The position numbers were made by a program, and so were the translations under genes. A stretch of DNA of 45,740 nucleotides from a bacterium (GTDB lineage Bacteria; Patescibacteriota; Minisyncoccia; UBA6257; JAGOQP01). The notes beneath the pieces were generated by a model, which was given only the letters and a program-made list of their open reading frames with translations, was not told where the DNA came from and made no database searches. Shown here in pieces: positions 260-41,417 of the stretch (position 1 is its first letter; each line of letters begins with the position of its first letter). The stretch is from the NCBI GenBank assembly GCA_021801825.1, contig JAJYXK010000013.1:1-45740 (forward strand). The letters are read 5' to 3'.

Positions 260-1168
260 ATGAAACGCAATATCTTTTATTTCGTTATCCTCCTGCTTGT
301 TATGTGTATTCTTCCTGCAGGAGTTTTTAGTCAAACTGGATCCTTAATCCAGAACCTTACTGCCAAGTGGGTTAATAAAGTCCCTTGGCTGTCATATTCA
401 AATACTCCACAAGCTGAGTTTAAAACTTATGTTGATTCCTGTACTCAATTAAATTGTTATGTGAGGGTTTTTGAGCAAAAAGATCTCCCCATTATTACTG
501 ATGCGGCCTACTTCAATTGGATTGCGGATCCCGCAGAAACATTACAGGTCCCTGACTCTGTTAGGGTGATCGCAAAAGTTATTTCAACAGATCCTCAAAA
601 TCTTCCCATTGTTAGTTTGCAAGTTAAATTATTGCAAAAGAGTGTGGGTGGAGGATATTTCAGTGAGTATAAAGACATTAATTCCACGTGGAGCACGTAT
701 GTGTGGAAAACTACTGATACCTATCGCAAAGTTCCATCTTTCGAAGGGTTTGGTATTGGAGTTATTATTGGTCAGTCTCCAAATGCGATGAAAGCAACTA
801 TTGCTGTAAAAGTTGTTGAGCTTTGGAAAAACGGCGTCTGTTACTATCAGTACCTGTTCAAACCCGACACCACTGTTTCTGTTGAGGATGCTCCAACTAT
901 TCCTACTAGTTTTGCGCTCTCTCAGAATTATCCCAACCCGTTTAATCCGAGTACTCGCATAAAAGTGACTATTCCTGAGGCAGGAACTTACGAGTTAGCG
1001 GTATATAATAGCATTGGACAGAAAGTTTCGGTTATCATTTCCGAGCAGCTTTCTATCGGCATATATGAATTCACTTTTAGTGCCGGAAAACTCTCATCGG
1101 GGGTATATATCTATCGTTTAATTGGTAGAAATACCTCTCTTTCTAAGAAAATGTTATTAGTTAAATAA
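260..1168 (+). CDS. secreted protein with T9SS type A (Por) C-terminal sorting domain
   Basis: N-terminal signal peptide; C-terminal 'FALSQNYPNPFNPST...YNSIGQKV...LSSGVYIYRL...KKMLLVK' matches the T9SS CTD consensus. Confidence 0.9.
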   Translation: MKRNIFYFVILLLVMCILPAGVFSQTGSLIQNLTAKWVNKVPWLSYSNTPQAEFKTYVDSCTQLNCYVRVFEQKDLPIITDAAYFNWIADPAETLQVPDSVRVIAKVISTDPQNLPIVSLQVKLLQKSVGGGYFSEYKDINSTWSTYVWKTTDTYRKVPSFEGFGIGVIIGQSPNAMKATIAVKVVELWKNGVCYYQYLFKPDTTVSVEDAPTIPTSFALSQNYPNPFNPSTRIKVTIPEAGTYELAVYNSIGQKVSVIISEQLSIGIYEFTFSAGKLSSGVYIYRLIGRNTSLSKKMLLVK

Positions 1169-4200: not shown

Positions 4201-4667
4201 ACACCTATACAGCCGTTAGCTCGGTGACTAATTATCAGATTCAAGTAACCGTTACTGACATGGCGGGGCGCGCTCAAAGTGATAGCGCAAGTGTTACGCT
4301 TACTGCATATCCACCGCTTGCGTGTACCTTGAATATGAATAAGTCCATTGGACTTCCTCCATTTCATCCAACCTTTATCGTAAAGAGTAAAGGAGGGACT
4401 GAAAGTAAGTATCGTATTCTTATGAACGCCGATGGGGGAACAAAAGCGACCGATGAGGCATTTGTGAGCAATCCTGCTACTGCGTCTACTACCTTGAGTC
4501 AATACGTTTACTTAAGCTCAGGATCATATAGTCCAGTCGCTCGTGTGTTTGACCTAGATCTTATCGGAAGTGGATTTCTTGTGGGAACCAAGAATGCTTC
4601 TACTACCTGCGCTACTTCCACGACGGTTCTCTCAGGAAGTGGGGGAGAAACAACTCCAGGATTGTAG
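1293..4667 (+). CDS. large exported Ser/Thr-rich surface protein with C-terminal PKD domains
   Basis: Signal peptide from ATG 1293 (MYKRILLSLLL); three (N/D)FGDG...Y...Y.V PKD motifs plus a degenerate fourth; ends GGETTPGL. Confidence 0.85.
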   Translation: MYKRILLSLLLIVGVFGTTSLTHALPVESVGVTPSQQTLSYATVPVYQNGVQTGTTKAYTGSILVSVTNPQKKSLCVTVPSTVSLGGYTFPVAGRGISGSGQWVGDNQVCGNDNFQVSVSINVKSTTGAALDAGTYSYPVTSNSSGYESLSASLIISRVAYSVTGVTLAQYNANVYDATNCDVSQAQDPYQAGDYRMCRILPVNNRNGSIFVNGGPVGQVGSFITDDPGTTGTWSLYLPNYRATIQGGVFYGGTAYRIYTAARFVNGAWQKSYVTEIAINPVSGQGDFSNVDSINIYTPMSLSYNSFTLTPATQTQTTTLSESYSQSGTISFNVSDRVGVSCGDVNMSAVAKGPLANYVSGIQGNINTSCAPTISFNIKPSYVSNQIVYRCPIDANGVDEEGIPLAGKIVANGSVSCGRVSTMGNKLVYPYADTIPTTHYLKDDIVDSSAIQFDVTGKTYDGYMTIGTSRTVSATVVLKPTAPTKTISIKSGQPSASFSGDSRNQTVTIPVTITATGFSSENEIIAKRSYGEPLNKFLSIVSYFTTNTSSSIVNGATTLTINKSLTIVRNGENPTSDIIGDIRLTAFSTDGTATATPINVKVTIDGPILPPGDLQLLPRLQSMHVAEKDLPKTVFFDVTASTTADCNSISYVNGYLPDITPSWVTPMRGFGGNKCLTRFAVALPPDALSHLNQSNNSLIGVTAGTATINGTTTTGFAGFWVTVDPSIVVPPTTLTAHLDLSKSGAKVNEVINATTTSTGGSDPKTYKINFGDGTGDQPGQFLSHAYAASGSYTVTGTVTDANGVVATDSKGININTVVVSDLKALLSVSPTQVDVGDPVQAALSASGGTGPYSAYKIDFGDGTISNTSSASNSYDSAGTYTVTGTITDTTGATASVSKTISVNYPRIQAGITITSPTPQSRIITPDKVIVAVSASGGRGAGTYRYSIDFGDGSSPMVYSNAGGSVTNIQHTYTAVSSVTNYQIQVTVTDMAGRAQSDSASVTLTAYPPLACTLNMNKSIGLPPFHPTFIVKSKGGTESKYRILMNADGGTKATDEAFVSNPATASTTLSQYVYLSSGSYSPVARVFDLDLIGSGFLVGTKNASTTCATSTTVLSGSGGETTPGL

Positions 4668-4745
4668 AATAGTAAATATAGAAAATAAAATCCAAAACCC
4701 CCGAGAGGGGGTTTTGAGTTAAACCAAACTCTTTCAATCTTATCT
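4639..4745 (+). repeat. left copy of ~100-bp direct repeat (PKD gene 3' end plus terminator)
   Basis: ACAACTCC(A/G)GGATTGTAGAATAGTAAATATAGAAAATA...CAAAACCCCCGAGAGGGGGTTTTG...AAACTCTTT recurs at ~10896-11000. Confidence 0.9.
4693..4716 (+). terminator. intrinsic (probably bidirectional) terminator
   Basis: CAAAACCCCC-GAGA-GGGGGTTTTG perfect hairpin. Confidence 0.8.
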
Positions 4746-4814
4746 ATTGTGTATTTATATAAAATGTGGTTAAATAAACTTAGTATATTACAATAAAATA
4801 AAGGAGAAATAATT

Positions 4815-6128
4815 ATGTTGTATAAAACATTGGATTCGCCACTTTCTATTCACTTAGAGGTGAATACCTCTTGTAACCAGAAATGTATTCATTGTTATAA
4901 TTTTTGGAGAAAGGAAGATAAACCAGTCTTCATTAATCTAAAAAAAGAACTTGCTGAGCATATAGTGCAACAGCTGAAGAGGTTTGGGGTGTTTCACGTT
5001 GTTCTTAACGGAGGGGAGCCTCTTATGAATTTATCAACCCTTCTCTTTCTAATAGATGCTCTTTCAAGAAATCAAATTAGTTTTTCTCTTAATACTAATT
5101 TGACCCTTCTTACTGAGTCATCGGCGCAAAAATTAAAAGATGCTGGACTTGAAATTTTGCTTACGTCGTTACTTTCACACAATCCTGCGGTTCACAACTA
5201 TCTTGCTCAAGAAGAAAATTCTTTTGAAAACTTCTTAAACGGTTTCAAAATTGCTAAAAAAGTTGGCTTCAAGATTACTGTTAATATGGTTGTATCTAAA
5301 GTGAACAAGAGAGACATTTTGGGGGTCGGTCTATTAGCGAATTCATTAGGGGCTTCGTCATTTTCTGCAACGCGAGTTATGCCTCAACATCCTTACAATT
5401 CGGATTTTAATGAGTTACTCGCCTTAGACAATGGGGATGTTGATCATATAATTAAATCGCTTATGATTTTACATTCTGATAATATTTTTGTTGAATCTCT
5501 TATCCCATATCCAACGTGTTCTTTCAACAATAACGCTGAATTCCTTGTCCTTGGAAGAAAGTCTTGTTCTGCTGGGAAAACCTCGTGTGTTATAGGGGCC
5601 GATGGTCTAGTTAGGGCATGTCCTCATGATAGTAAAGTATATGGAGATATCAAAAATGAAAATCTTGGTTTAATATGGCAAAACATGTCTGAATGGAGAG
5701 ATGGAAGCCTTATTCCTCTTGAATGCAAAAAATGTCATTTCTTTTCACAATGTGGCGGTGGATGTCGCATGACATCAACACATGTGTTTGAAAAAGATAC
5801 GGCTATGAGAGAGAACCAAATGGAATCAAAACACAATATAGCTATATATCCAAGTATGAAATCTCTTGATGGAATTGCTCTGTTGAGAGTAAAGGAAACT
5901 TGTAGATTTAGAAAGGATGGAGAACTTTGTGTTATAAACACCGGAGGAATGAAGAATGTGTTCATAAATTCGGAAACGTTTGGTTTACTTTCTACACTTT
6001 ATTCTGAAAAATCAAAATTTACAGTGTCTGAGCTTATTACTAAGTATGATTTACATATGAATTTGGAAGAATGTTGTAATTTCTTCTCTCATCTTGTAAA
6101 CAGGGGTGTTATTGAGATATTGACCTAA
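4815..6128 (+). CDS. radical SAM/SPASM peptide maturase with C-terminal PqqD/RRE-like domain
   Basis: CNQKCIHC, GGEP, SPASM cysteines (CSAG...RACP...CKKC..FSQCGGGC); last ~85 aa have a beta3-alpha3 RRE-like pattern ending 'FFSHLVNRGVI'. Confidence 0.9.
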   Translation: MLYKTLDSPLSIHLEVNTSCNQKCIHCYNFWRKEDKPVFINLKKELAEHIVQQLKRFGVFHVVLNGGEPLMNLSTLLFLIDALSRNQISFSLNTNLTLLTESSAQKLKDAGLEILLTSLLSHNPAVHNYLAQEENSFENFLNGFKIAKKVGFKITVNMVVSKVNKRDILGVGLLANSLGASSFSATRVMPQHPYNSDFNELLALDNGDVDHIIKSLMILHSDNIFVESLIPYPTCSFNNNAEFLVLGRKSCSAGKTSCVIGADGLVRACPHDSKVYGDIKNENLGLIWQNMSEWRDGSLIPLECKKCHFFSQCGGGCRMTSTHVFEKDTAMRENQMESKHNIAIYPSMKSLDGIALLRVKETCRFRKDGELCVINTGGMKNVFINSETFGLLSTLYSEKSKFTVSELITKYDLHMNLEECCNFFSHLVNRGVIEILT

Positions 6129-6196
6129 TCTTTTATCTATCCTACTATTAAGATGGTACACTAAGTACCTATTAGCTAATAAAGACGGAGTTTCCA

Positions 6197-6334
6197 ATGG
6201 AACTCAAATTTGTTTCTTTACTTAACCTCACAGATGATTGTAACAATCTATCCTGTTGTGAAAGTGGTAGTGGTGGATGTAACACGTGTCAATCAGGATG
6301 TGAGGGGGGGACAGAGGAGTGTGATGGAGAATAG
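6197..6334 (+). CDS. Cys-rich RiPP precursor candidate, 45 aa, 7 Cys (missed by ORF track)
   Basis: Hand translation MELKFVSLLNLTDDCNNLSCCESGSGGCNTCQSGCEGGTEECDGE*; GGAG RBS at 6187-6190; lies between the rSAM gene and a terminator. Confidence 0.8.
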   Translation: MELKFVSLLNLTDDCNNLSCCESGSGGCNTCQSGCEGGTEECDGE

Positions 6335-6365
6335 CTCTCCCGTCTCGTTTGTTCTCTAGTATTAG

Positions 6366-6401
6366 AGCCCGTGCTATTTTGGCACGGGTTTATTTTTTTT
6401 T
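6366..6401 (+). terminator. intrinsic terminator closing the rSAM-peptide unit
   Basis: CCCGTGC...GCACGGG stem followed by a long T-run. Confidence 0.8.
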
Positions 6402-6418
6402 AATTTCGTGTAGTATAT

Positions 6419-7129
6419 ATGCATATGAGTTATCCTCACGTTACATTTCAATACAATATAGATAAAGATATCTCCAATTTGAAAATTGGACTCGCTGTTG
6501 CGCACAATGGAAGAAATAACGACGGGGAAATATCTCATATTGTGCGAGTTTATGACGCCAATCCTACAGATGAACAGCTATACGCCTATGTCAATAAGTG
6601 GTGGGGCGGTAGGGAACATCTAAAACCTCTTATTTTAGAACCTCTACAATCGTATTGGAATTCCGTAGAACATAGTTTCTTTGAAACACTATATTCCAAC
6701 ATGCAGTTAGATTCATGGTATGAGGTAAAAACTATTGATTCATTTCTCAGCATCCGTTATGGGTGTGGGTATAATGAGAAGGAAAATTGGTTTGCAACTA
6801 GTGTCCACGCGAGCTCTTTTCGAAATACTGCGACCGCCATGCATGAAATTATGCATATTTTCTTCCATAAACAGTGGTGGAATTTTTGTGTATCACAAGG
6901 GATTGAAAGTTCATATATATGGGATATTAAGGAATCATTTACTACACTTCTTAATGTGTGGTTTGAGGATTTGCTAATTGATACAGATTTCGGATATCCC
7001 GAGCACCAGAATTTACGCACAAAAATACGTGAGTGGCATCAAGAGAAGGATGATTTCAAAACTATGTGTGAAAAGGCGTGTTTGTATATGAAAGAACATC
7101 CCGAAGAACACGCGAAATGGAAAGTTTAA
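6419..7129 (+). CDS. hypothetical HExxH (gluzincin-like) metalloprotein
   Basis: 'MHEIMH' with a downstream Glu in 'DIKESFT'. Confidence 0.6.
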   Translation: MHMSYPHVTFQYNIDKDISNLKIGLAVAHNGRNNDGEISHIVRVYDANPTDEQLYAYVNKWWGGREHLKPLILEPLQSYWNSVEHSFFETLYSNMQLDSWYEVKTIDSFLSIRYGCGYNEKENWFATSVHASSFRNTATAMHEIMHIFFHKQWWNFCVSQGIESSYIWDIKESFTTLLNVWFEDLLIDTDFGYPEHQNLRTKIREWHQEKDDFKTMCEKACLYMKEHPEEHAKWKV

Positions 7130-7295
7130 GTTTGGGATTGTCTTTATATAAGAGAGGGTTCATTTTTCTTGTTCTTTGTGCTCTGGTTCTTGATCCAGAT
7201 GATGTGTCGCTTCTTGAGAAAATAGTCCCTCAATTTATCCTTAATCTCCATAGCAAGATGTCTCTTCAAAAAACTGTTTTATGATAGTTAATATA

Positions 7296-7841
7296 TTATA
7301 GGGCAGTTTTTTTGAACGTAAGATTATTTGGATCTAATCCTTCAGATTTTATTATCTCTGTGGCAGTCCCCTTGATGATTTGTGAATTCTTGATATTCAG
7401 AGATTTCAACAATGTGTTTACGTCTTTTTTGCTAGACGCTTCAATTTCCATATATGGATTCATATTTGGATAAGTGTCTAGTTCTATTTTCGTGTCTTTT
7501 AATTTATATTCTTCTCTTATTTTTTCTCTATTCCTAAAAATTTTAAATCCCATAAATTCTAGGATTTTCTTTGCCTGTTCAAAACTACTAACCTGTATTT
7601 CATACTCGTCTCGGATTTCAAAATTTTTGTCTTCTTTTTTTACTTTTATGGTTAGAAATGTTTTTTTCCCCTCTTTTCGTAATCTAAGGGAAGAATACGC
7701 GCGTTCTTTTTGGGCTGATTCAAAATACAACTCATGCATTAAGGTTGGTTTCATAATTAACTTTCCCCCAATTTTTCTTAAATCTCTGCGCACTCTTTTT
7801 ACGTCAATGTCTAATATTTTTATTTCTATTTCTCTTTTCAT
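7296..7841 (-). CDS. cyaB: CYTH-domain protein (class IV adenylate cyclase-like)
   Basis: EIEIK (ExExK) start, LRLRK, REEY, EIE motifs. Confidence 0.8.
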   Translation of the reverse strand: MKREIEIKILDIDVKRVRRDLRKIGGKLIMKPTLMHELYFESAQKERAYSSLRLRKEGKKTFLTIKVKKEDKNFEIRDEYEIQVSSFEQAKKILEFMGFKIFRNREKIREEYKLKDTKIELDTYPNMNPYMEIEASSKKDVNTLLKSLNIKNSQIIKGTATEIIKSEGLDPNNLTFKKTAL

Positions 7842-7847
7842 ATTGGA

Positions 7848-8588
7848 TTATATAAATAACAATTTGGTTATATCATTAAATATTTTTACCGACAAATCTA
7901 TTTCCTCTCTTAGTTTCTCTTCTGATATTATTGTTACTTCTTTTTTCGCCCTCATTTCCTCATATTTTTTTAATTGCTTGATTATTCTTATTGGAAGACT
8001 TTTCTCTGCTAAATATATGACTTCTCTGTATGTTGAGGGTGCTAGTTGTGGCTCTGCCAAGCTTTGTTTTAATATTAGAAAAATAATTTTTATGTTCTTT
8101 TTTAGTAATTTCTGAAGACTCTTTTTATCCTTGGTATGTGTAAAGATATCGGCGTTTCTCCTTAAAAAATTTTTATCCTGATCTGCAAGGGTTGCCCAGA
8201 ATCCATAGATAAAATCTTGGTAACCCATCGCGGGGATTTTTATATTTTTCTTTATTAAAACCTTTGTTTTTCCGAGGAAAAATAAAAAATTTTTAATTTT
8301 CCCATGTAATTTTCTTGGCTCGGTGTGTTCTATGGTATATTTCGAAACAATCATGGTGTCTATCTCAATTTTTGCAAGAGATTCTAACTCTTGCTCACAT
8401 TTTTTTACAAGTCTTAGATTTAGCGAATCTATCTTGTTTAAAACCAATAGCACATCTATGTCACTCCACCCATGGACAAAATTTTTTCTTCCAACGCTTC
8501 CTCCGACGATAAGTAAATTAATGTTTTTTCCCAAGGTCTTCCTATATGTGAAATGAATGGTTTTTAATAATTTATTTATATCTACCAT
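7848..8588 (-). CDS. Pol-beta-fold nucleotidyltransferase-domain protein
   Basis: 'GGSVGR...WSDIDVL' GS/DxD motif with a helical C-terminal half; ATG 8588 overlaps the upstream stop. Confidence 0.75.
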   Translation of the reverse strand: MVDINKLLKTIHFTYRKTLGKNINLLIVGGSVGRKNFVHGWSDIDVLLVLNKIDSLNLRLVKKCEQELESLAKIEIDTMIVSKYTIEHTEPRKLHGKIKNFLFFLGKTKVLIKKNIKIPAMGYQDFIYGFWATLADQDKNFLRRNADIFTHTKDKKSLQKLLKKNIKIIFLILKQSLAEPQLAPSTYREVIYLAEKSLPIRIIKQLKKYEEMRAKKEVTIISEEKLREEIDLSVKIFNDITKLLFI

Positions 8589-9412
8589 AATAACATATTT
8601 AATTTTTTTGTTGACCAATTAAATTGGTGTATAGATCGATTTTTAATATAAGTTCCTGGGTTTAGTTTTATCACCTTTCTATTATCTTTGACTACAAGCG
8701 ATCCATGAAGAATAAACATATTTTCAAATATTTTTGTGTATTCTTGTAGTGTTTTATTCATCACGTTTTTCTTCGACGATATTATTAATTCTTCTATTTT
8801 TATCATTCTTTGCCCAACTCCGTTTTCTGGTATAAATTTTTTCCTTTTTATTATGTCTTTTCTGCAATCATTTTGTTCTAAGCATTGGTATTTTTGAATC
8901 CCTATTTTTTTTCTTAGTAATGTTTTGTTAAATTGAAGATATCCATCCCTCTCTCTTCCATAATCGTCCTGTATTCTTATGAGGTTATATTTATTTGGGG
9001 GAGATTCTAGCTCTAAAACCCTTGAATAAAATACTTTGTCTTTATTAATTGTCTTATGAGCAAGCCCTGCTTTAATGATTCTAAAATCACCAGGATGCAA
9101 TACATTTCTACTACTAAGCGTCTCTAAAATAATATCTCCCTGAATTACAATATTTAGTGTATCTTTCTGGGGATGACAATGTAGTGATGTGGAAGACGTT
9201 GGTTTTATGTGAAGTTCCCATATTTCTACTTTTTTATTTTTTCCACACAGATATTCGTATCCCCATGGTTTTTTCACTATAAAATTTTTAAAGTCAAAAG
9301 CGCCAGTTCTTTTTATCTTTCTAATAGATTTATTTCTGATGATACGCGCGTCTTTCTTTGTTGGGTTAATTACTTTTTGAGATTTTATAATATGTGGATA
9401 TTCTGTAATCAT
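8582..9412 (-). CDS. cupin-domain protein (mannose-6-P isomerase-like cupin)
   Basis: KKPWGYE, TSLHCHP, 'RIQDDYGR' motifs; probable second degenerate cupin at the C-terminus. Confidence 0.75.
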   Translation of the reverse strand: MITEYPHIIKSQKVINPTKKDARIIRNKSIRKIKRTGAFDFKNFIVKKPWGYEYLCGKNKKVEIWELHIKPTSSTSLHCHPQKDTLNIVIQGDIILETLSSRNVLHPGDFRIIKAGLAHKTINKDKVFYSRVLELESPPNKYNLIRIQDDYGRERDGYLQFNKTLLRKKIGIQKYQCLEQNDCRKDIIKRKKFIPENGVGQRMIKIEELIISSKKNVMNKTLQEYTKIFENMFILHGSLVVKDNRKVIKLNPGTYIKNRSIHQFNWSTKKLNMLLW

Positions 9413-9936
9413 TTGTTTTTCAAAAAATCTATTATGGCCTTTACGAACGGTGCAAGATCTCGTGGGTGTCTGGATGTTATGATATTTTTATCTACTACCA
9501 CTGGTTCATCTTGATATATTGCCCCTGCATTTTGTAGGTCATCTATTATGGCGCGATAACACGTTGCGACTTTTCCTTTCATGATTTTTGCAGAAATAGG
9601 AATCCATACTCCGTGACAAATTGCTGCCACTAGCTTGTTTTTGTTGTACATATCCATAACAAAGTTTAAAACATCCCTGTTCATCCTAAGTCTATCTGGG
9701 CCCTCATTTCCTCCTGGGATAACAACACAGTCAAAATCATTTTCTTTGAGATCTTCTAGCTTTATGGTCCCTTGCATAGGAAATCCAAATTTCCCAAAAG
9801 CTGTCTTCTTCTGATCCGTTGCTATTTCGATTGAAATATTTTCTTCCTCTTGTAGCCTATAGAAAGGATAAATAGCTTCTTCGTCTCTGAAATCTGTTTC
9901 TAGTAAGATAACTATTCTTTTTGTTGTGTTGTTCAT
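9409..9936 (-). CDS. pfpI: PfpI/DJ-1 family protein (type 1 glutamine amidotransferase-like)
   Basis: 'FRDEE', 'IPGG', 'AAICHG', 'ITSRHPRDL'. Confidence 0.9.
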   Translation of the reverse strand: MNNTTKRIVILLETDFRDEEAIYPFYRLQEEENISIEIATDQKKTAFGKFGFPMQGTIKLEDLKENDFDCVVIPGGNEGPDRLRMNRDVLNFVMDMYNKNKLVAAICHGVWIPISAKIMKGKVATCYRAIIDDLQNAGAIYQDEPVVVDKNIITSRHPRDLAPFVKAIIDFLKNK

Positions 9937-10778
9937 GTTTTTTGTTTTATTGTTGAATTATGTTTTGTAGTAATCCCATTTCTTTTCAAATATTTAATAC
10001 CGGCATTATCTCCATAAGGAAAAAGATAAGAGACTTTTTTAATTGAGGATTTGGCAATTGCTTTTGCGCACATCAAGCAGGGGGGTATTAAAATATGCAT
10101 AGTACATTTATCTAGATTTAATTTCTTCTTTCTAATTTCCTCTAGTAATAGAATTTCAGCATGTTCTTCGCTAGCTGAATTTTTTGACTCTGCAATAATT
10201 TTACCATCTTTGTCTTCCAGCACGGCTGTTATCTTTGAATGTAGCCCATTACTTAGAATTGTATTTTTAAGTAATCTTTTTGAAATTTCATCTTGCTTCT
10301 GTTTCGTGTTGATTGAGTATAGTTTTTGGCGATTAAGAAAATCAGACAAACGAAAAGGGGCGTATTTAATGTCTAATTTTTTGTACGTTTTTTTTATCTC
10401 TTCTCCAAGTTTTTTTCTGTAGGTTATATTATCATTTTGGAACGCGATTGTTTTTGGTTTTATTTTTTTTATACACTCGGTGTCGTGTGCCGTTTTATTT
10501 TCAATTAACACATAGTCTACAAAATTTAGTGATGAAATAATTTGAGCACGAGTACTATGTGTGGCCGAAAGTGGACTAGTAAAACCCCTTCTCTGTAAAA
10601 CCATCTTATCTCGCTGAACAATCACAATGAGTGGGCGTCCTTGTTTTGATGCCCACTTTAACAATCTAAAGTAGTATTCATTAAAAGGATCAAAAGATCC
10701 ACTAATTAGAGTTGCTGAATTCTGTTTTACCAGAGACGGAATCTCTTTTAGTGTGTAAATCTTATTTTTTTCACACAT
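9933..10778 (-). CDS. fusion of cytidylyltransferase-like domain and zinc-dependent nucleotide deaminase
   Basis: N-terminal 'SGSFDPF...VDYV...KP' (HIGH motif degenerate); C-terminal HAE...PCLMC. Confidence 0.8.
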   Translation of the reverse strand: MCEKNKIYTLKEIPSLVKQNSATLISGSFDPFNEYYFRLLKWASKQGRPLIVIVQRDKMVLQRRGFTSPLSATHSTRAQIISSLNFVDYVLIENKTAHDTECIKKIKPKTIAFQNDNITYRKKLGEEIKKTYKKLDIKYAPFRLSDFLNRQKLYSINTKQKQDEISKRLLKNTILSNGLHSKITAVLEDKDGKIIAESKNSASEEHAEILLLEEIRKKKLNLDKCTMHILIPPCLMCAKAIAKSSIKKVSYLFPYGDNAGIKYLKRNGITTKHNSTIKQKT

Positions 10779-10895
10779 TTTTATCTTGTTTATCTTGCCG
10801 TGTATTATATCACGTTGCTAAGTTGATGAAAATGAACTCCTTAAAGCCATTGGGTTGTGTAGATATTAGTCATTTGTCTCTATATAAATGGTCTT

Positions 10896-11000
10896 GTGGG
10901 GGAGACAACTCCGGGATTGTAGAATAGTAAATATAGAAAATAGAAATTCAAAACCCCCGAGAGGGGGTTTTGTTAAATCAAACTCTTTAAACTTTTATCT
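10896..11000 (+). repeat. right copy of ~100-bp direct repeat, including terminator 10949-10972
   Basis: Matches 4639-4745; still reads GETTPGL* in frame. Confidence 0.9.
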
Positions 11001-11020
11001 TTATATTTTATACTGATTGT

Positions 11021-11482
11021 ATGGTTATATATATTGGCTCAGATCATCGTGGTTTTACTTTAAAAGAGGGACTAGTGTCGTATCTTAAAGGTGTTGGATA
11101 TGAGGTTGTGGATTGTGGTAACACTGAACATAATGAACAAGATGATTATGTTGATTTTGCGAGCGCGGTAGCGCGTCATATCAGTAGAGATCCCAACCAA
11201 CGGGGGATTGTGTTGTGTGGATCGGGAGTTGGGGTTTCTATCGTGGCGAATAAATTTTCCAACGTGCGTTGTTCACTTTGTTTTTCTTCTGATCAGGCTA
11301 TCGCGGCGCGACATGATGATGATGCAAATGTAATCGCGATTCCTGCGGATTTTATTTTGGGAGACGCGGCGAAAAAAATGATTGCGGTGTGGTTGCAAAC
11401 GCCTTTTAACGGTGGGGATGCCTATGTGCGTCGTTTGCAGAAAATCAGCGAGGTGGAATATGAGGTAAAAGAAAAAATGTAA
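11021..11482 (+). CDS. rpiB: ribose-5-phosphate isomerase B
   Basis: GSDHRG, CGSGVG, ANK, ARHDDDAN. Confidence 0.92.
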   Translation: MVIYIGSDHRGFTLKEGLVSYLKGVGYEVVDCGNTEHNEQDDYVDFASAVARHISRDPNQRGIVLCGSGVGVSIVANKFSNVRCSLCFSSDQAIAARHDDDANVIAIPADFILGDAAKKMIAVWLQTPFNGGDAYVRRLQKISEVEYEVKEKM

Positions 11483-11496
11483 TTGTTCGTTTTGTT

Positions 11497-12081
11497 ATGC
11501 TCAATCATAAAGGGAAGAGGTTGTGTATTACGGGCATTCCAGCTTCAGGAAAATCTTATTTAGCAAAAAAACTCGCAGTTGATACTGGGGGAATCTTTGT
11601 ATCTTTTGATGATTTAAGAGAGGGTCTTACTCATGATTTTGTTTATGGGAAATGGGTAAATTTTTATTATAATATTAGTGATGAGAGGGAGTATTATTTA
11701 GAAACCCCTCCTGATGTTCTATGGAAAGATATTGTTAGTCAGTCTGAGGGGCTTTGGCCTGTTTTTCTTGAACATATTCATTCTTATGTTAATGAGCCAC
11801 GCCCCGTTATCTTTGAGTGTGTTAATCTTTTACCACATCTTGTGGTACCGGATTGTGGTTTTCCTGAGATAGTGCTACTTGGTTCTTCTCAAAAGGAAAT
11901 TTTAGAGAGAAACAAAAAAGATCCGCGTTGGGGGAAGACTACTTTTTTACAAGAAATTGAGGCTAAGAACTTTTTTCTTGTTGAACGTCCACGATACAAA
12001 GAAGAGGGAGAGCTCTTTGGCGTCTTTATTTCTGATAATTTTGACGACGCATATTGTTTTGGGTTATCTGTCTTGAAATAA
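11497..12081 (+). CDS. P-loop kinase-like protein
   Basis: Walker A GIPASGKS near the N-terminus followed by DDLRE. Confidence 0.65.
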   Translation: MLNHKGKRLCITGIPASGKSYLAKKLAVDTGGIFVSFDDLREGLTHDFVYGKWVNFYYNISDEREYYLETPPDVLWKDIVSQSEGLWPVFLEHIHSYVNEPRPVIFECVNLLPHLVVPDCGFPEIVLLGSSQKEILERNKKDPRWGKTTFLQEIEAKNFFLVERPRYKEEGELFGVFISDNFDDAYCFGLSVLK

Positions 12082-12177
12082 TCAGAATTAATAAATATTA
12101 AGAAGGACCCCTGTATATAAAAGTGAATTTGATTCTAAACATTTCTACGCAACTCTTTTTGGTGTATACTGTTATAT

Positions 12178-12822
12178 ATGGAAGTTATTCCGGTTGTTAA
12201 TAGAGAAACTGTTTCTGATGCAAAACAGTGTTTAAAGATTCTTGAAAATTTTTCTTCTCGCGTCTCGCGAGTTCATTTTGATGTGGGCGTTCCACCGGTG
12301 TCTACTATTCGCATTCCGTTGTTTCCACAAGTGTTTGAGGCCTACAAAGACACATTTTCTTTTGAATTACATTGTATGGTTCCCGAAACACTTTTTTTCT
12401 CTAGGGCTCATCGCGCTCCCGGAGTCGCGCGAGTGTATTATCACCTAGATGAGATTCATGATGCTGAAAGATTTGAACGACAACTGCTTTCGTGGAGAAA
12501 ACAGGGAATTGATGTAGGGGTAGTGGTGCGTAGCTCTGATCTTCTTAAGAATATAGTGCTACCCAAAAGTGTGCGTAGTGTATTGGTACTCTCGGTTGTT
12601 CCGGGTCGCGCGGGACAGAAATTTCATACTCGCGCATGGAAAGTGATTTCGTTTTTGAAAGAGAAATACCCGCGTGTTATACTTACTGTTGATGGAGGAA
12701 TCACTCCTCCGATTGTCAAAAAACTTGCAAAACTGGGTGTCTCACGGGTTACCTCTGCAACGTATATTTGGGAAAGTAAAAAACCGGAGGAAGCGTACCG
12801 CAAGTTAGTAGAGAGTGATTAG
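12178..12822 (+). CDS. rpe: ribulose-phosphate 3-epimerase (divergent)
   Basis: HFD, ELHCM, VVPGRAGQ, VDGGI. Confidence 0.85.
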   Translation: MEVIPVVNRETVSDAKQCLKILENFSSRVSRVHFDVGVPPVSTIRIPLFPQVFEAYKDTFSFELHCMVPETLFFSRAHRAPGVARVYYHLDEIHDAERFERQLLSWRKQGIDVGVVVRSSDLLKNIVLPKSVRSVLVLSVVPGRAGQKFHTRAWKVISFLKEKYPRVILTVDGGITPPIVKKLAKLGVSRVTSATYIWESKKPEEAYRKLVESD

Positions 12823-12890
12823 TCGCGAGTATCTAGTAGAAATTTTTACTCAGCCCTAACCCCTAAACCCTATTTACTCATATATTTACC

Positions 12891-13748
12891 ATGTATCTTT
12901 CTCACAAACACATTAAACAGTTATACGGCATAGCAAATCATCTGAGAGAAGATGTCATCACTATGCTTGAAAAGGCGGGTTCAGGGCATAGCGCGGGGTC
13001 ATTGGGTATGGCTGATATTTTTGCGGGGTTGTATTTTGGTGTATTAAACCATAATCCCAAAAAGCCACTATGGAGCGATCGCGATAGAGTGGTGCTTTCT
13101 AATGGTCATATTTGTCCGGTTCAATATGCCGCCTTAGCTCGCGCCGGATATTTTCCACTCAAAGAATTAGAAACTTTGCGCGATTTTAAATCTCGCTTAC
13201 AAGGACACCCACATCGGGAATCATTGCCAGGAATTGAAACTACTTCGGGTCCTTTAGGAAGTGGTCTTTCTCAGGGGATTGGTATTGCGCTTGCGGGACG
13301 TATGGATCACAAAAAGTATCAAACCTACGTGATTTTATCTGATGGAGAACATGACGAAGGACAAACCTGGGAGGCGGTTCTTCTCGCGGGAAAACTTAAG
13401 CTAAATTCTCTTACTGCAATTATTGATAGGAATAATATTCAGATAGATGGATTTACCGAAGATGTTTTACCACTTGGGTCATTGCATGAAAAATATGAAG
13501 CATTTGGATGGCATGTTATAGATGTTGATGGGCATAATATAGAAGACTTTATAAACGCCACCTATGAAGCAAAAGCTGTTTATGAAAAGCCGACCGCAAT
13601 TATTGCGCATACTATCCCGGGGAAAGGAGTCTCTTTTATGGAGCGCTCATACGCGTGGCATGGCGCGCCGCCATCAAAAGAACAAGCTCGCGCCGCCTTG
13701 CGAGAATTGCGTACACTTGGAGGAAAAATTAGAGGAGAGAATGAGTAA
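12891..13748 (+). CDS. tkt: transketolase N-terminal subunit
   Basis: SGH, SNGH, LQGHP, TPP-binding SDGEHDEG. Confidence 0.93.
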   Translation: MYLSHKHIKQLYGIANHLREDVITMLEKAGSGHSAGSLGMADIFAGLYFGVLNHNPKKPLWSDRDRVVLSNGHICPVQYAALARAGYFPLKELETLRDFKSRLQGHPHRESLPGIETTSGPLGSGLSQGIGIALAGRMDHKKYQTYVILSDGEHDEGQTWEAVLLAGKLKLNSLTAIIDRNNIQIDGFTEDVLPLGSLHEKYEAFGWHVIDVDGHNIEDFINATYEAKAVYEKPTAIIAHTIPGKGVSFMERSYAWHGAPPSKEQARAALRELRTLGGKIRGENE

Positions 13749-13826
13749 GTAAGTATTAAGTATTATGTAGGTAGTATGTATTAAGGAAAGAGAAGAACTA
13801 ATCATAAATCTAAATAAAATATAATT

Positions 13827-14150
13827 ATGGAATGGGTAAAAAAAGTTTATATATATTTGTTTTCTGCGGTGGGGTTGGTTTTGGTTGTTATTGGATCTGT
13901 GCAAATCATTAATGTTGCTCTCAAAACGTATGTGTTCACTCAGGCAGACATGGTGTACGTGTATCCGCAAATACAGCCAGTAAATCCTACTGATAAATTT
14001 ATCCAGCCGGATCCAAATGAACAGATTGCATATCAAGAAAAAACACGCACAAGTACTCGTCAACGAGATGTTGCGAATGCAATTGCTTTATTAATAGTTG
14101 GTACCCCACTGTTTCTTTTTCATTGGAAGCTTATTAGAAAGAACGGCTAA
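13827..14150 (+). CDS. two-TM membrane protein (DUF5671-like)
   Basis: 'VYIYLFSAVGL' and 'IVGTPLFLFHW' helices. Confidence 0.7.
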   Translation: MEWVKKVYIYLFSAVGLVLVVIGSVQIINVALKTYVFTQADMVYVYPQIQPVNPTDKFIQPDPNEQIAYQEKTRTSTRQRDVANAIALLIVGTPLFLFHWKLIRKNG

Positions 14151-14177
14151 TTTTATTAGATATTAGTTATTATTCAC

Positions 14178-15170
14178 ATGTTACACATTTCTCAAAATCT
14201 ATCTCATGACATTTTTTCAAAATCAGTTCCTACTGCGGCACTGCGCGATGGATATGGAGAAGGATTGCTTGAAGCAGGGCAAAATTCTCAGGTAGTTGTT
14301 CTTACCGCCGACGTTGAAGAATCAACTCGTACTCATACCTTTCATACATTATATCCTGATAGATTTATTGAGATGGGAGTGTCGGAACAAAATATGGCGA
14401 GTGTTGCCGCGGGACTTGCGGTTTCTGGGAAAATTCCCTATATCAATGCATATGCAGTGTTTTCTCCGGGAAGAAATTGGGAGCAAATTCGGACTACCAT
14501 TGCATATAATAACGCAAACGTAAAAATTGCAGGACATCATGCGGGTATTTCTACGGGTGCAGATGGCGCAACACATCAAGCAATTGAAGATGTGGCTTTG
14601 ATGCGTGCTATGCCGAATATGATGGTGCTTACACCCTGTGATGCGATTGAGGCGCGCAAGATGACGGTTCAGGCGGCGCTTATTAATAAACCTATATACA
14701 TACGATTACAACGCGAAAAAACTCCGATACTTACCACGAAAGAAACTCCTTGCACCATTGGAAAATCTGAAGTTTTTTGGATGCCTAAATCAAAGAAATA
14801 TTCAGTGGTTTTGTTTGCTATGGGTCCTATGGTGTATCAAGCATTGTTAGCTGCGCGAGAATTGGAAAAACTTAGTATTGCTGCAGTTGTGGTGCGTGTG
14901 GGAACCATTAAGCCGTTTGATGAAAAAACTACTATTGAATGGTTAAAGAAAGCGGGAGCAGCGGTTACTATTGAAGATCATACTATTTATGGAGGACTAG
15001 GTTCAGTTGTTTCTGAGGTTGCGGCGCGGTCATGTCCCACTCCTATTGAAATGGTTGGAGTCGCTGATGTTTTCGGACAATCGGGAACCGCACATCAGTT
15101 ATATAAAGCATATCACTTAGAGGTTGATGATATTGTACGAGCGGCAAAGAAAGCAATAAAACGTGTGTAA
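14178..15170 (+). CDS. tkt: transketolase C-terminal subunit
   Basis: GVSEQNM, DGATHQ, EDH..GGLG. Confidence 0.93.
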   Translation: MLHISQNLSHDIFSKSVPTAALRDGYGEGLLEAGQNSQVVVLTADVEESTRTHTFHTLYPDRFIEMGVSEQNMASVAAGLAVSGKIPYINAYAVFSPGRNWEQIRTTIAYNNANVKIAGHHAGISTGADGATHQAIEDVALMRAMPNMMVLTPCDAIEARKMTVQAALINKPIYIRLQREKTPILTTKETPCTIGKSEVFWMPKSKKYSVVLFAMGPMVYQALLAARELEKLSIAAVVVRVGTIKPFDEKTTIEWLKKAGAAVTIEDHTIYGGLGSVVSEVAARSCPTPIEMVGVADVFGQSGTAHQLYKAYHLEVDDIVRAAKKAIKRV

Positions 15171-15175
15171 TTACT

Positions 15176-16174
15176 ATGGACATTCTTACTATCGGAACAG
15201 CTCTTGTTGATTATATTATACCCGTCTCCGTGAAGAGCTCTGGAAAGAAACTTACTTTTGAAAAAGGAAAAAAATATGAAATTCATCCTCCGGTGATGCG
15301 CGCAGGAGGCGGCGCTTTGAATGTGGCAGTTACGTGCGCGCGTGCAGGTAAACAAGTAATGCTGGCATCCGAGTGGGGTTCTGATGCCGCGGGTTCATTT
15401 CTAGAACGAAGCATACGAACTGAGGGAATTGTTCCTCGGATCACCATTTCTCAAAAACAACCCACGGGAACTTCTTTTGTGTTGGTTTCTCCTGATGGCG
15501 AGCGAACGGTGTTGGTTTCTCGAGGGGCATTAAATTCGTTTTCTCTTTCTGATATTCCCGCGCGAGATCTTCAAAGAATTTCGTGGGCATATATTGTTAC
15601 TGGATCGTGGTCTATTTCTACGATTGAAAAATTACTACGCTTGTTATCTCGAGCTGGTATATCTACGGTGGTAAGCCCCTCAGGACAGTTACTTACGCAT
15701 GATAAAAAATCTCTTGCGCCTATTTTTTCTCTTAGTGATGTGGTGATTATGAATCGTAGCGAGGCGGCATTAGTGACTGGAATTCGCGCAACGCAAACAA
15801 AAACATTATTTAAAGAGCTTGATAGCATGGTTCGTGGTATTGTGGTTATGACCGATAGTAGCAAAGGAGTAATGGTTTCTGATGGGTCTCGTATGTTTAG
15901 CGCGCCCGCGTTTGATGCCCATGTCGTTGATGAAACAGGAGCGGGTGATGCATTCGGAGGAGCTTTTATGATGGGGCTTATAGAATCTGGCGCTCGTTGT
16001 GGTAAGGGGGTGTGTAGTGAGGAGGAGATGATTTATGCGCTTCGCCGAGGTTCCGCGAACGCCGCATCTGTTATAGAACACATGGGGGCTACGGAGGGGA
16101 TTCTTACTAAAAAACAATTTTTGACTCAAAAAAGATGGCGCACGTACCCTGTTAAAATTATTCATTTGAATTAA
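15176..16174 (+). CDS. PfkB family carbohydrate kinase
   Basis: GGGALN, GERT, DETGAGDAF. Confidence 0.9.
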   Translation: MDILTIGTALVDYIIPVSVKSSGKKLTFEKGKKYEIHPPVMRAGGGALNVAVTCARAGKQVMLASEWGSDAAGSFLERSIRTEGIVPRITISQKQPTGTSFVLVSPDGERTVLVSRGALNSFSLSDIPARDLQRISWAYIVTGSWSISTIEKLLRLLSRAGISTVVSPSGQLLTHDKKSLAPIFSLSDVVIMNRSEAALVTGIRATQTKTLFKELDSMVRGIVVMTDSSKGVMVSDGSRMFSAPAFDAHVVDETGAGDAFGGAFMMGLIESGARCGKGVCSEEEMIYALRRGSANAASVIEHMGATEGILTKKQFLTQKRWRTYPVKIIHLN

Positions 16175-34742: not shown

Positions 34743-35147
34743 TTAGTAAATTTTTGGGTTGAGAATTCCTTGCGCGAATGCAAGCTTCAGGTGATTGAAT
34801 AAAGAGAGTTCTGGATTTTGTATGTTATAAACATGTCCTATCGATGTGCCCTGAATATCAGATTTATTTCTTAAGCCCGACCCGAACACTACAACTAACA
34901 ACAATATGAATAGCAGAGAAATGACAGTAGAAACATTGGGTAAGGTTGTAGCAAGTATCTGCAGGGAACTTATATGTTCATAAACGGTTGGGCAACCTGT
35001 CTGTGCCTCGCTTATAGGACACTGGGTGGTTTGAGTCTTAAAATGATAGATCGTTTCTACCGATCCCCAGGAACAAGCAATACTAATAACGAAAGTTATT
35101 AGGACTAAAAAGAAAGCAAGTGATTTTATATGTTTGGCGATTCCCAT
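34743..35147 (-). CDS. small membrane protein heading the metal/redox operon
   Basis: Two hydrophobic segments, Cys/His loop, C-terminal FAQGILNPKIY. Confidence 0.7.
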   Translation of the reverse strand: MGIAKHIKSLAFFLVLITFVISIACSWGSVETIYHFKTQTTQCPISEAQTGCPTVYEHISSLQILATTLPNVSTVISLLFILLLVVVFGSGLRNKSDIQGTSIGHVYNIQNPELSLFNHLKLAFAQGILNPKIY

Positions 35148-35262
35148 AGATTCTAAAATTTTAGCATAATTTATGCCCTTTAGGAAATTATCTATTATTA
35201 TTAAAACTTGTAGCTAGTAGCTTGAGGGTACTGCTCGCTGAATACAAAGAAGAATAACCCAG

Positions 35263-35399
35263 ATTTGCCATTTGTTTGCCCCTGGGGCGAGCGGTTGAGC
35301 CGAGGTGAGAGATTTGCACCGATCAGAAGCCCGAACCGAACGTAAACCATTTTTGCGACCGTAATGCGATTTGCTTAACTTTTCAAAAGTTAAGCAAAT
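35263..35399 (+). repeat. degenerate direct repeat, copy 2, ending in a 31-bp palindrome
   Basis: GTTTGCCCCTGGGGCGAGC ... ATTTGCTTAACTTTT-C-AAAAGTTAAGCAAAT (35369-35399). Confidence 0.6.
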
Positions 35400-35418
35400 T
35401 ATCACGAGTCATATTTGC

Positions 35419-35624
35419 TTAACCCTTTTCCTTTTTCGGCTCGGACATTAAATCAAAAATCTTTTTAGTCTCATTGATAATTTTTTCTCGCAATTTAATA
35501 TCTATAATCGCTCGCTCTAATACCTCCATAGCGTTTGATCCATCAATACCGTTTTGCTTGATTACTCTCGCAAGGTTAATATAGGCCACAAAGGCAAACC
35601 GCACGTACTCCTTATGCTTATATA
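35419..35624 (-). pseudogene. 3' fragment of IS-interrupted HEPN gene
   Basis: Removing the IS and one TATATA restores ...DFDLLY-KHKEYVRF... in frame. Confidence 0.85.
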
Positions 35625-36630
35625 CTATGAATAACGAAATGCATCTCGTAACATAATTTGATAAAATACAAGCGGCTCCTTTTGGAGCCGCTTGTATTAT
35701 GAACACCTTCTTAACAATCTACGACAAACTCAACACTATCGTATCACAGTTCTTCAAAACATTAAAATTCAAGGAGCGGGAACATTCCAAAGGTCGGAAA
35801 CCAATACTCAAAAATTCCGAAGCGGTCACGGCTGTCATTTTCTGGAGGAGACAGAACATCGGCAGTAAGAAGTCTCTATACGAAATTCTAGAACCTTCGA
35901 TGTCTTACAACCGCTTTGTTGTGGCCCTAAACAAAACGGCAAAATATCTGGCGACAATTATCACGGCTGTCATGAAATTTCTCCGCAAAAACGCTCATTT
36001 GGTTAAATTTACAGATTCAACCGAGCTTCCTGTCTGTCTCAATAAAAACGCAAAACAGCATAAGACTATGAGAGGACTGTCGGCTAAATCCAAAAGTTCC
36101 AAAGGTTGGTTCTATGGCTTAAAACTTCACCTTTCGGCTGACTGCCAAGGAAAAGTTTTGGCGATAAAGTTCACACCGGGCAATTCTAATGATAGGAGCA
36201 TATTCAAAAAAATGAACGACAAACAGAGAGGGTTATTCGTAGCCGACGCGGGCTATGTGTCTGAAGAGCTTGAGCGAGATTTTTTCATTGAACATGAACG
36301 ATTAGTCATTACTTGCCCGCGCAAGAATATGAAAAAACTTTCGGTTCCATGGCAAATCAGTCTCTTGAATTTGCGAATGAGAGTGGAGATTCACTTCCGC
36401 GTTCTCAAGGTTTGCTACGGACTGGTTACATCGCTTCCTCGTTCCATCGATGGTTACTTGACCCATTATATTGCCGCCATTGCTACCCATCTCATATCTT
36501 AATTATTGAAAGTTTCGGTTTTCCTTGCTGTTTCTTCCTTGAATCTTTAGTTTGAGCTTGTTTTTTTCAAAACCACAGACGGCTGTGGCGAGTTTAAAGT
36601 GTATTTAAAAACGCATTTCGTTATTCACAG
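35625..36630 (+). mobile_element. IS982-like insertion sequence, 1006 bp
   Basis: 18-bp terminal IRs CTATGAATAACGAAATGC / GCATTTCGTTATTCACAG (1 mismatch); TATATA duplicated on both sides (TSD boundary ambiguous because it is palindromic). Confidence 0.88.
35699..36502 (+). CDS. DDE transposase (IS982-like)
   Basis: DST.LPVC, GWFYGLKLH, ADAGY, R..VE. Confidence 0.88.
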   Translation: MNTFLTIYDKLNTIVSQFFKTLKFKEREHSKGRKPILKNSEAVTAVIFWRRQNIGSKKSLYEILEPSMSYNRFVVALNKTAKYLATIITAVMKFLRKNAHLVKFTDSTELPVCLNKNAKQHKTMRGLSAKSKSSKGWFYGLKLHLSADCQGKVLAIKFTPGNSNDRSIFKKMNDKQRGLFVADAGYVSEELERDFFIEHERLVITCPRKNMKKLSVPWQISLLNLRMRVEIHFRVLKVCYGLVTSLPRSIDGYLTHYIAAIATHLIS

Positions 36631-37501
36631 TATATAATAAGTCAAAGTCGGGAGTTGGAATGTTGTTGTATGCAGTGGGGCTTTCTTTTGCAATTTGTTC
36701 AAAAAATGAGCCATGTACGAATGCGCTTCTCGCTGAATATAATTCTTTTATGTCTTTTTCAACGTCGGGGAACCTCCAAGCAAGCAATGCGGCCATACGT
36801 TTACGTAAACGATACATAACTTCCTCATTACGAGCGTCACCGGCAGTAAAAAGAGCCTCAAGGATTGTCGCCATCTCTGCCGATTCTCTTTGCCAGCCAA
36901 ATGAACTTTTTGAATTCTCATAGTCTGACAATCCTGAATACAGGAAAGCGGCTACAAACAACCTCCAATCCTCTTTATTCCATGACTGAATACGATCTAA
37001 ATGCCAGCTACCATATTTTGATTGCTCATAAAGCGTCTTATAAAAATCTACAAAGTTTTTATTATTAAAGATTGAGTGGTTTTGATTGTGGAAGTAAATC
37101 ATAGGATCTTTACCGTGCGTCTGACGCATAATACCCATATCAGTTGCATGGAAAACGGGATAGAGAAAATTTGGAGAGTAAAGGTTTAGCAAAAATAACG
37201 TCTCGGCATAACTAAAACCGCCCTCTTCAAGGGTATTGGGAATAAGCAAACCCCATGAGCATTTTTCGTATTGCTTCTCAGTAATTCCAAATAAATCTTG
37301 TACATTATCCTCAATTTTGTAATTACGAAGTACATTATCATTTATCGGTGCTATTTTATTCTTTAATGCACCGACAAATTCATCTGTGGTAAATTTCTTG
37401 AGATTCCAAAGCTCATATCCATCTTTGAGCTCAAATAATTTAGTGTCCTCGTTTATGGGATTGCCAGTAAAGGCAAAAAACATTGTTGTTGCTCTAGCCA
37501 T
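36631..37501 (-). pseudogene. ApeA/HEPN-domain protein, 5' part, IS-disrupted
   Basis: 'LEALF...LYSARSAFVHG' RxxxxH HEPN motif; likely start MARATT at 37501. Confidence 0.75.
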
Positions 37502-39311: not shown

Positions 39312-39339
39312 TTCTCATTAACTTAGATCTACGCTTCTC

Positions 39340-40137: not shown

Positions 40138-40141
40138 ATGT

Positions 40142-40948: not shown

Positions 40949-40949
40949 A

Positions 40950-41153: not shown

Positions 41154-41253
41154 AAAAATAAAATTAGTCGTTGATGCCATTTTACCGCTTCCGTATTCCA
41201 TTGTCAAAATAGTCGTATTTTGTCATAATACACTTATAGCTAATCTGATAAAG

Positions 41254-41361: not shown

Positions 41362-41417
41362 AGTAAAAAAGGAAAAGTGAACTGGAAGTAATGATTAGGA
41401 TTACATCCAGTTAAAAA

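Follow-up and report, generated by a model that had tools for sequence, protein, structure and literature searches.

Within a 45,740-nt contig of a patescibacterial draft genome (JAJYXK010000013.1, assembly GCA_021801825.1; the whole stretch is referred to here as the window), we analyzed an operon of five minus-strand genes at positions 7296-10778. These encode a cytidylyltransferase (CTase)-deaminase fusion, a PfpI/DJ-1 enzyme, a cupin, a Pol-beta nucleotidyltransferase (NTase), and a CYTH triphosphate tunnel metalloenzyme. The operon is a mobile accessory set that natively holds six genes, the sixth being a convergent NDK-like kinase gene, and it is real, conserved, mobile, and apparently undescribed. 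Of the functions considered we tentatively favor a pathway that makes and dephosphorylates a modified nucleotide or a nucleoside monophosphate (NMP) conjugate. A first-pass annotation, made from the sequence alone, had proposed an undescribed defence/signalling system or a modified-nucleotide pathway; the modified-nucleotide branch stands as the best reading, while second-messenger signalling is disfavored by an NTase that is AadA-like, a CYTH protein that lacks the cyclase motif, and the lack of an effector gene.

All five open reading frames are intact at the coordinates first reported, and Pfam finds all six domains that had been called. The fusion comes first (281 aa; 9933-10778; CTP_transf_like and dCMP_cyt_deam_1), followed by the PfpI/DJ-1 enzyme (175 aa; 9409-9936; DJ-1_PfpI), the cupin (276 aa; 8582-9412; Cupin_2), the NTase with its helical C-terminal domain (246 aa; 7848-8588; NTP_transf_2), and the CYTH protein (181 aa; 7296-7841; CYTH). 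The genes are joined by ATGA overlaps at 9933/9936 and 9409/9412, a 7-nt overlap at 8582/8588, and a 6-nt gap before CYTH; the NTase start is the ATG at 8588, as in homologues. The products are all small and soluble-looking, and the motifs HAE/PCxxC (deaminase), GS..DxD..D (NTase), and ExExK (CYTH) are present. The operon has a GC content of 31.4% compared with 38.9% for the 654-kb host genome (G000; 91.8% complete), and GC is as low in 6 of 1154 overlapping genome windows of the same length, the operon's own position counted in. Together with a flanking direct repeat, these values confirm the original picture of five AT-rich, overlapping genes inside an islet. A sigma-70-like site (10 of 12 positions, extended -10) located 26 nt 5' of the first gene (10804-10832, minus strand) is a candidate only, and promoter-like sites are not enriched over shuffles (24 found vs a shuffle mean of 31). 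Where the two reading frames converge, a 19-nt inverted repeat lies between their stop codons (7268-7312) and may act as a shared terminator, and no Rfam family was found near the operon. Strain variants at 12 of the listed positions, 7 synonymous and 5 not, are too few for judging selection.

The gene order recurs elsewhere, as the synteny search suggested by the first-pass annotation revealed. Among 32 other loci holding the fusion, all five genes stand in the same order in three (L002 from Komeilibacteria, L012, and L014), and the order is kept as far as the contig end in three further loci (L011, L013, and L033). Indirect co-occurrence agrees with this: when the 17 closest fusion homologues (of 31) are set against 24 NTase homologues, the length of the longest contig agrees in 11 pairings, two of them L002 and L012, and eight also include the cupin. 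In Uhrbacteria, the accessions of the deaminase and the NTase differ by three, which is what the gene order predicts. In G176 and G1253, both from one other genus, PfpI-cupin-NTase-CYTH occurs with no fusion gene, and an NDK-like gene converges on CYTH in 5/5 other loci that extend past it. The core is thus PfpI-cupin-NTase-CYTH plus NDK, with the deaminase optional. The fixed order, the overlaps of stop and start codons, and an NTase family almost confined to this set argue for a single pathway. No relative of the fusion or NTase was found in the viral collection, no NTase match on plasmids, and no cupin match in annotated phages. We found no literature description of the operon in a search that left aside supplementary tables (large defence screens, e.g. 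PMC13069673; PMC3239186), which could list it; among the terms searched, the accessible text of PMC3239186 does not mention the fusion.

In the window, the sixth gene survives as a 3' remnant of about 37 codons at 7172-7284 (plus strand), which the first-pass annotation had missed. Its 37 residues find their best ungapped match at the C-terminal end of all three cassette NDKs tested, a score reached by 0 of 1000 shuffles. A genome-wide six-frame search with a profile of five cassette NDKs missed the remnant, as did tblastn, and Pfam NDK has no match in the host genome; the call relies on the positional match test together with a contig from run X8. That contig joins position 4717 to 7172 via 552 other letters, the last 30 of which, just ahead of 7172, encode in frame the stretch following the NDK catalytic His. 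This in-frame junction indicates that a related strain likely holds the six-gene set between the repeats. In the host, most of the NDK gene was likely displaced by a radical SAM-peptide-HExxH module, which occupies the place where the 5' part would be. The cassette NDK-like proteins retain Lys, Arg, Asn, and His at the sites of what we take to be the NDK motif and score 34.7 bits against an NDK equivalog cut-off of 155. With the kinase truncated, the pathway may be incomplete in this host.

The islet itself is delimited by a direct repeat, whose left copy (4639-4745, plus strand) comprises the 3' end of a PKD gene, a spacer, and a terminator hairpin, and whose right copy (10896-11000, plus strand) lies just 5' of rpiB. 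The two copies, the only ones in the genome, are 89.9% identical over 109 columns and enclose 6.2 kb. One congener (G003) presents the empty site, with the PKD gene, terminator, and rpiB contiguous, and another (G001) holds different cargo there, namely YcaO-nitroreductase, DUF2268, and unknown genes; the contig of the third (G002) begins too close to rpiB to be informative. The junction between the PKD gene and rpiB (window 4640-11020; L050, L051) is therefore a cargo hotspot. The fusion gene is found in 0/3 congeners, at full length in 0/400 phylum-wide genomes (two N-terminal partial matches), and in 1/400 genomes of the order and 1/400 of the class, which makes it rare and patchy. The radical SAM gene was considered as an operon member and rejected, its module being replaced by the 552 other letters in the X8 contig.

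The CTase-deaminase fusion is the most distinctive component. In a model of pLDDT 90.7, its N-terminal domain is closest to HldC and glycerol-3-phosphate cytidylyltransferase, and its C-terminal domain to the dCMP deaminases of S-TIM5 and T4 (4p9e, 1vq2), with a helix-4 deaminase fold and a dCMP-deaminase-type tail. The zinc deaminase residues H206, E208, C234, and C237 are intact, and HAE and PCxxC are invariant in 32/32 fusions. Conversely, the HxGH of the CTase (HUP) domain is replaced by an NxYY-type sequence in 30/32 close homologues, a loss that the first-pass annotation had overlooked and that leaves an active CTase unsupported. Both HxGH and the distal S-T-T/S motifs are intact solely in a solo clade. 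In a quick tree, all copies that lack HxGH group into a single clade (SH-aLRT 100), which holds all operon-type copies; their kinship makes this a single loss rather than many. At the 6 distinct loci with flanks, the HxGH-intact gene stands by itself, whereas every HxGH-less copy whose downstream flank is available belongs to a cluster of nucleotide enzymes. The dead CTase domain matches the deaminase in conservation, with a mean pairwise identity among 30 sequences of 0.52 and 0.49, respectively, against 0.17 for the linker. The fusion lacks the Cys-bearing insert found before HAE in classical-type fusions (P0047, P0055, and P0058), N200 and H206 being separated by 5 residues. The host genome holds no other PF00383 gene, and the automatic name TadA was discarded (21.7 bits vs 150, and a model without the C-terminal TadA helices). 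Two distant fusions extend the range of architectures: P0086 (481 aa) joins a cytidylyltransferase, a dCMP deaminase, and a CAP12/Pycsar TIR domain, and P0058 (561 aa) joins an ATP-cone, a cytidylyltransferase, a NUDIX domain, and a deaminase.

PfpI keeps E20, C107, and H108, passes TIGR01382 (161.9 bits vs a cut-off of 139.05), and has PH1704 as its closest solved relative (E 1e-32); it is the only DJ-1 gene in both the host genome and G176. The cupin resembles the type II mannose-6-phosphate isomerase domain (KPWG, H78-C79-H80, H119, and E134). A complex prediction for PfpI and the cupin (score 0.01, mark 0.32) gives no evidence either way. In the NTase (pLDDT 92), D43, D45, and D77 are invariant, and the closest folds are ANT(3'')(9) (Z 16.3; rmsd 3.3, 221 aligned, 12% identity) and AAD(9) (Z 15.2), with HEPN-like domains and HalB following at Z of about 10-11. 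Its residues conserved at 90% include 11 basic and 5 acidic ones, three of the latter being metal ligands, and this mostly basic character fits an anionic acceptor. The CYTH protein is closest to SaTTM (Saci_0718; E 3.6e-9), carries ExExK, and passes TIGR00318 (72.7 bits vs a cut-off of 57.95). It begins four residues before ExExK, without the N-terminal HF motif, which PMC8233210 describes as characteristic of class IV cyclases while noting that cyclase-type annotations of CYTH proteins cover triphosphatases too. From these sequence features, CYTH is predicted to be a triphosphatase.

We also identified the dead-CTase deaminase in four other operon types (B-E) besides the one in the window (type A). 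These sister operons contain a carbamoyltransferase, NUDIX, and NTase-like protein with a convergent adenylate-kinase-like gene (L010, L015, L016, L021/22); a His-phosphatase-like protein, NUDIX, and NTase-like protein (L006/24); an APH-like kinase, a nucleoside-bisphosphate-phosphatase-like PHP protein, an NTase, and a GT4 (L004/18/19); or two radical SAMs, NUDIX, and NDK (L003, L023). A phosphohydrolase (CYTH, NUDIX, PHP, or His-phosphatase-like) is present in 5/5 types, a kinase (NDK, adenylate-kinase-like, or APH-like) in 4/5, a Pol-beta NTase in 4/5, and a swappable tailoring part (cupin and PfpI, carbamoyltransferase, GT4, or two radical SAMs) in 4/5. In a profile comparison the type-A and type-B NTases matched at a probability of 4%, so that their closeness is not shown, and the type-B protein is called an NTase from its GS..DxD motif alone. 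What the family has in common is nucleotide transfer, the addition and removal of phosphate, and a tailoring step that varies. Carbamoyltransferase, GT4, and radical SAM enzymes build rather than clean.

We hypothesize that these activities could combine as follows. The cupin would isomerize a sugar phosphate to a reactive carbonyl, which PfpI would turn into a hydroxy acid, unless it instead hydrolyses an acyl intermediate. The AadA-like transferase would then join an NMP to a phosphorylated acceptor. Where the deaminase is present, it might convert the cytosine of a CMP- or CDP-linked species to uracil, with the dead CTase domain serving as a substrate-selecting or allosteric pocket. Finally, the NDK-like kinase would lift the product to a triphosphate, from which CYTH could strip the terminal phosphate as an off-switch. 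The likeliest use of such a product would be as a conflict compound, i.e. a nucleotide analogue directed against phage or competitors. Several observations weigh against this pathway. The chemical steps are all derived from folds at 12-25% identity; outside the operon, the PfpI-cupin pair is associated with sugar-nucleotide clusters; and the deaminase is dispensable, as in the G176 and G1253 copies. The basic residues of the NTase were counted in an alignment rather than placed on a pocket. No defence genes were found among the neighbors of types B-E (99/383 open reading frames compared with Pfam and a subset with PADLOC). Moreover, the NDK gene is broken in the host while the other five genes are intact, which suggests either that the kinase is non-essential or that the locus is decaying.

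A possible but less probable function is the supply of a glycan donor, in which the cupin and PfpI make a small acid or a sugar unit, which the NTase turns into an activated NMP or NDP conjugate and glycosyltransferases encoded elsewhere attach to a surface glycan, with NDK and CYTH managing only NTP supply and by-products. Evidence comes from viruses: of 185 loci with a cupin of this family, the best 80 (not dereplicated) include 65 with PfpI, which lies directly upstream of the cupin in 41 of 64, with partners including E1-alpha (45), E1-beta (44), acetolactate-synthase-like proteins (13), DegT (39), and NAD epimerases (40). Two candidate phyla radiation (CPR) genomes (G291 and G193) show the same pairing beside sugar-nucleotide enzymes. 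Moreover, the folds nearest to the HUP domain are HldC and glycerol-3-phosphate cytidylyltransferase, and the type D operon holds a GT4. The type-A copies themselves speak otherwise, as none contains a thiamine pyrophosphate (TPP) enzyme, dehydratase, epimerase, flippase, or glycosyltransferase, the dead domain is the very one that activates sugars, and 0/4 long-flanked copies lie within a glycan locus. The first-pass annotation had named a known sugar-nucleotide pathway among the findings that would count against it; the PfpI-cupin pair does occur in branched-sugar clusters, but the operon is without their TPP enzyme, dehydratases, and epimerases. As the pair is typical of sugar clusters, the operon seems to have arisen when two genes of sugar chemistry were taken into a nucleotide chassis. 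The viral and CPR clusters also hold a PfpI-cupin-phosphatase-TPP enzyme module (L056-L135, L142, L143), accompanied by a D-2-hydroxyacid dehydrogenase in G291; this module could supply keto-acid donors for branched sugars, and a literature search found nothing on it.

Damage control or resistance is a somewhat doubtful alternative, whereby separate enzymes would clear methylglyoxal (PfpI), inactivate a toxic small molecule by deaminating or nucleotidylating it, and keep the nucleotide pool clean (CYTH and NDK) in a salvage-dependent host. It accords with a PfpI above its family cut-off that is the sole DJ-1 gene of its genome, with an NTase fold nearest to antibiotic adenylyltransferases, with the VOC and pyrophosphatase genes that flank the G176 copy, and with the glyoxalase and cyclic 3-phosphoglycerate anhydride (cPGA) hydrolase activities of DJ-1 proteins reported in PMC13449665 and PMC10915168. 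The fixed, overlapping gene order and the set-restricted NTase family instead point to one pathway, and the sister operons swap in biosynthetic enzymes. The conserved NTase residues are basic, which would be unlike what the binding of a polycationic aminoglycoside demands, and no NTase relative was found on plasmids.

Classical nucleotide-based defence is improbable as an explanation. Here the NTase or CYTH would make a cyclic or oligonucleotide signal, or the deaminase would drain dCTP in the manner of AvcD. Its appeal lies in the patchy, mobile nature of the operon and in its context, as defence-type neighbors occur in 3/4 copies with more than 3 kb upstream: Shedu, IrrE, and helix-turn-helix genes in G1253; AbiV-HEPN and IrrE in L013; and, in a recombinase-bounded element of G176, a UvrD helicase followed farther away by restriction-modification genes. 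CYTH is above the TIGR00318 cut-off, Hailong HalB is among the NTase fold matches (Z 10.3), and the distant relative P0086 carries its Pycsar/CBASS-type TIR domain. Nevertheless, no operon gene comes near any defence-family cut-off, the CBASS cyclase model (NF041117) reaching 19.1 vs 200 bits and the anti-phage dCTP deaminase model (NF041025) 21.9 vs 400. The fusion is only 281 aa and lacks a P-loop kinase domain, CYTH lacks the class IV HF motif, none of the six genes encodes an effector domain, and PfpI and the cupin are left unexplained. The proximity to defence islands that the first-pass annotation had envisaged thus holds for the flanks of three copies and is not seen among the scanned neighbors of the four sister operons; the window copy has no nearby defence genes, the restriction island beginning 24 kb away. 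Since two of the three defence-flanked copies are congeneric, mobile islands mix defence with other cargo, and types B-E show no such neighbors in the part scanned, we regard defence as a hint rather than a result. Directly upstream of the G176 cassette (L144:8283-11736), the UvrD helicase is followed by a 500-aa protein without a Pfam, PADLOC, or NCBIfam match, and the two are possibly an unnamed two-gene defence unit.

Least probable is thymidylate or pyrimidine supply, with the deaminase providing dUMP: the top fold matches are dCMP deaminases, distant fusions hold classical ones, the fusion is the sole PF00383 gene of its genome, and the carriers G176 and G1281 have ThyA elsewhere, but no thyA lies beside any annotated copy, the other operon genes would go unexplained, and a housekeeping dUMP role is unlikely in the host because searches of it and its three congeners (drafts 90-99% complete, which can miss genes) revealed no ThyA, ThyX, dUTPase, or thymidine kinase.

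Patescibacterial genomes are tiny, and neither a thymidylate synthase nor a dUTPase nor an intact NDK was detected in this host, yet several lineages keep this operon. If the modified-nucleotide reading is true, it would entail a new family of transferases, a pseudo-enzyme domain that acts as a sensor, and swappable tailoring modules, and antiviral nucleotide analogues might be obtained from it. A bolder version, which we consider unlikely, is that the operon family consists of plug-and-play nucleotide-analogue factories in ultra-small bacteria, in which a common chassis (dead-CTase deaminase, AadA-like transferase, kinase, and a triphosphate-removing safety valve) and swappable tailoring enzymes would yield non-canonical NTPs that poison the replication of phage, a chemical immunity independent of viperin. 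Should the operon instead be a glycan or damage-control module, it would still open a first way into the study of the PfpI-cupin pair, which viral sugar clusters commonly hold.

In addition to the operon, the islet contains the passenger module already mentioned (4815-7129, plus strand), which is separate from it and encodes a radical SAM/SPASM protein, a 45-aa Cys-rich peptide, and an HExxH protein. The peptide (6197-6334) carries six Cys, and the module looks like one for a ribosomally synthesized and post-translationally modified peptide (ranthipeptide-type). The islet adjoins a host locus of pentose-phosphate genes (rpiB, rpe, a split transketolase, and a PfkB kinase; 11021-16174, plus strand). 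A P-loop kinase (11497-12081, plus strand) with a weak VakA match (E 1.5e-5) is inserted between rpiB and rpe; it is absent in G001 and in the X7 and X8 contigs, and congeners carry other genes there. That this kinase replaces the lost NDK in the host is a guess from two strains, of which X8 lacks it. Upstream of the islet, a gene at 260-1168 (plus strand) has a match above cut-off to a type IX secretion C-terminal sorting domain, in a patescibacterial genome and beside a 1159-aa PKD protein. A second island (34743-45692) ends at tRNA-Ala and holds a transposase, a DUF4209 protein with a PDC-S39 match, an MvaI/BcnI endonuclease, an N4/N6 methylase, and a serine recombinase.

The first-pass annotation recognized no named system in this combination, and the operon does not pass the tests that define CBASS, AvcD, Kongming, and viperin, in line with that judgment. 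AvcD likewise has a nucleotide-binding domain N-terminal to a dCMP-deaminase-type zinc deaminase and is patchy and mobile. Its family is defined by a kinase plus deaminase of over 350 aa, according to 10.1101/2021.04.26.441389, whereas the fusion described here pairs its deaminase with a dead HUP cytidylyltransferase rather than a P-loop kinase, is shorter, falls below the cut-off, and is optional in a multi-enzyme operon. Viperin systems resemble the operon in combining a tailoring enzyme with a dedicated kinase, and sometimes a triphosphatase domain, on mobile DNA; 10.1101/2023.09.13.557418 describes linked kinases and triphosphatase/cyclase fusions for this nucleotide-analogue enzyme. The operon, however, contains no viperin radical SAM, and the neighboring one has a SPASM domain, scores 58.3 vs 180 bits, and is separable. 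In Kongming (KomABC), a deaminase and NDK activity similarly yield a base-modified NTP, but that system comprises a PF00962 deaminase, a HAM1 pyrophosphatase, and a SIR2 effector (10.1101/2024.12.20.629578), and a Pfam scan of the operon found neither the PF00962 deaminase (KomA), HAM1, nor SIR2; the operon also lacks an effector. As for CBASS and Pycsar, PADLOC cyclase matches on the NTase span only about 50 N-terminal residues (best E 7.5e-7), and no adjacent membrane, TIR, nuclease, or phospholipase effector is found among the five genes or NDK. In the fold comparison of the NTase, CdnE entries are listed at TM 0.28-0.30 and the AadA family at up to 0.63. The AadA/ANT(3'')(9) and AAD(9) enzymes share the two-domain fold over the whole length and the three metal carboxylates, but at 12-13% identity, and the operon NTase has mostly basic conserved residues, is locked to its operon, and was not found on plasmids. 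SaTTM, the best solved relative of CYTH, similarly has ExExK and no HF motif, yet it is a stand-alone enzyme, whereas the operon CYTH faces NDK. The branched-chain NDP-sugar clusters of phages and CPR bacteria, which we take to be of the yersiniose type, have adjacent PfpI and cupin genes of the same family; the operon has no TPP enzyme, dehydratase, epimerase, or glycosyltransferase and carries NTase, CYTH, and NDK instead. The operon is a member of none of AvcD, the viperin-kinase pairs, Kongming, AadA, or the branched-sugar clusters, while sharing individual features with each.

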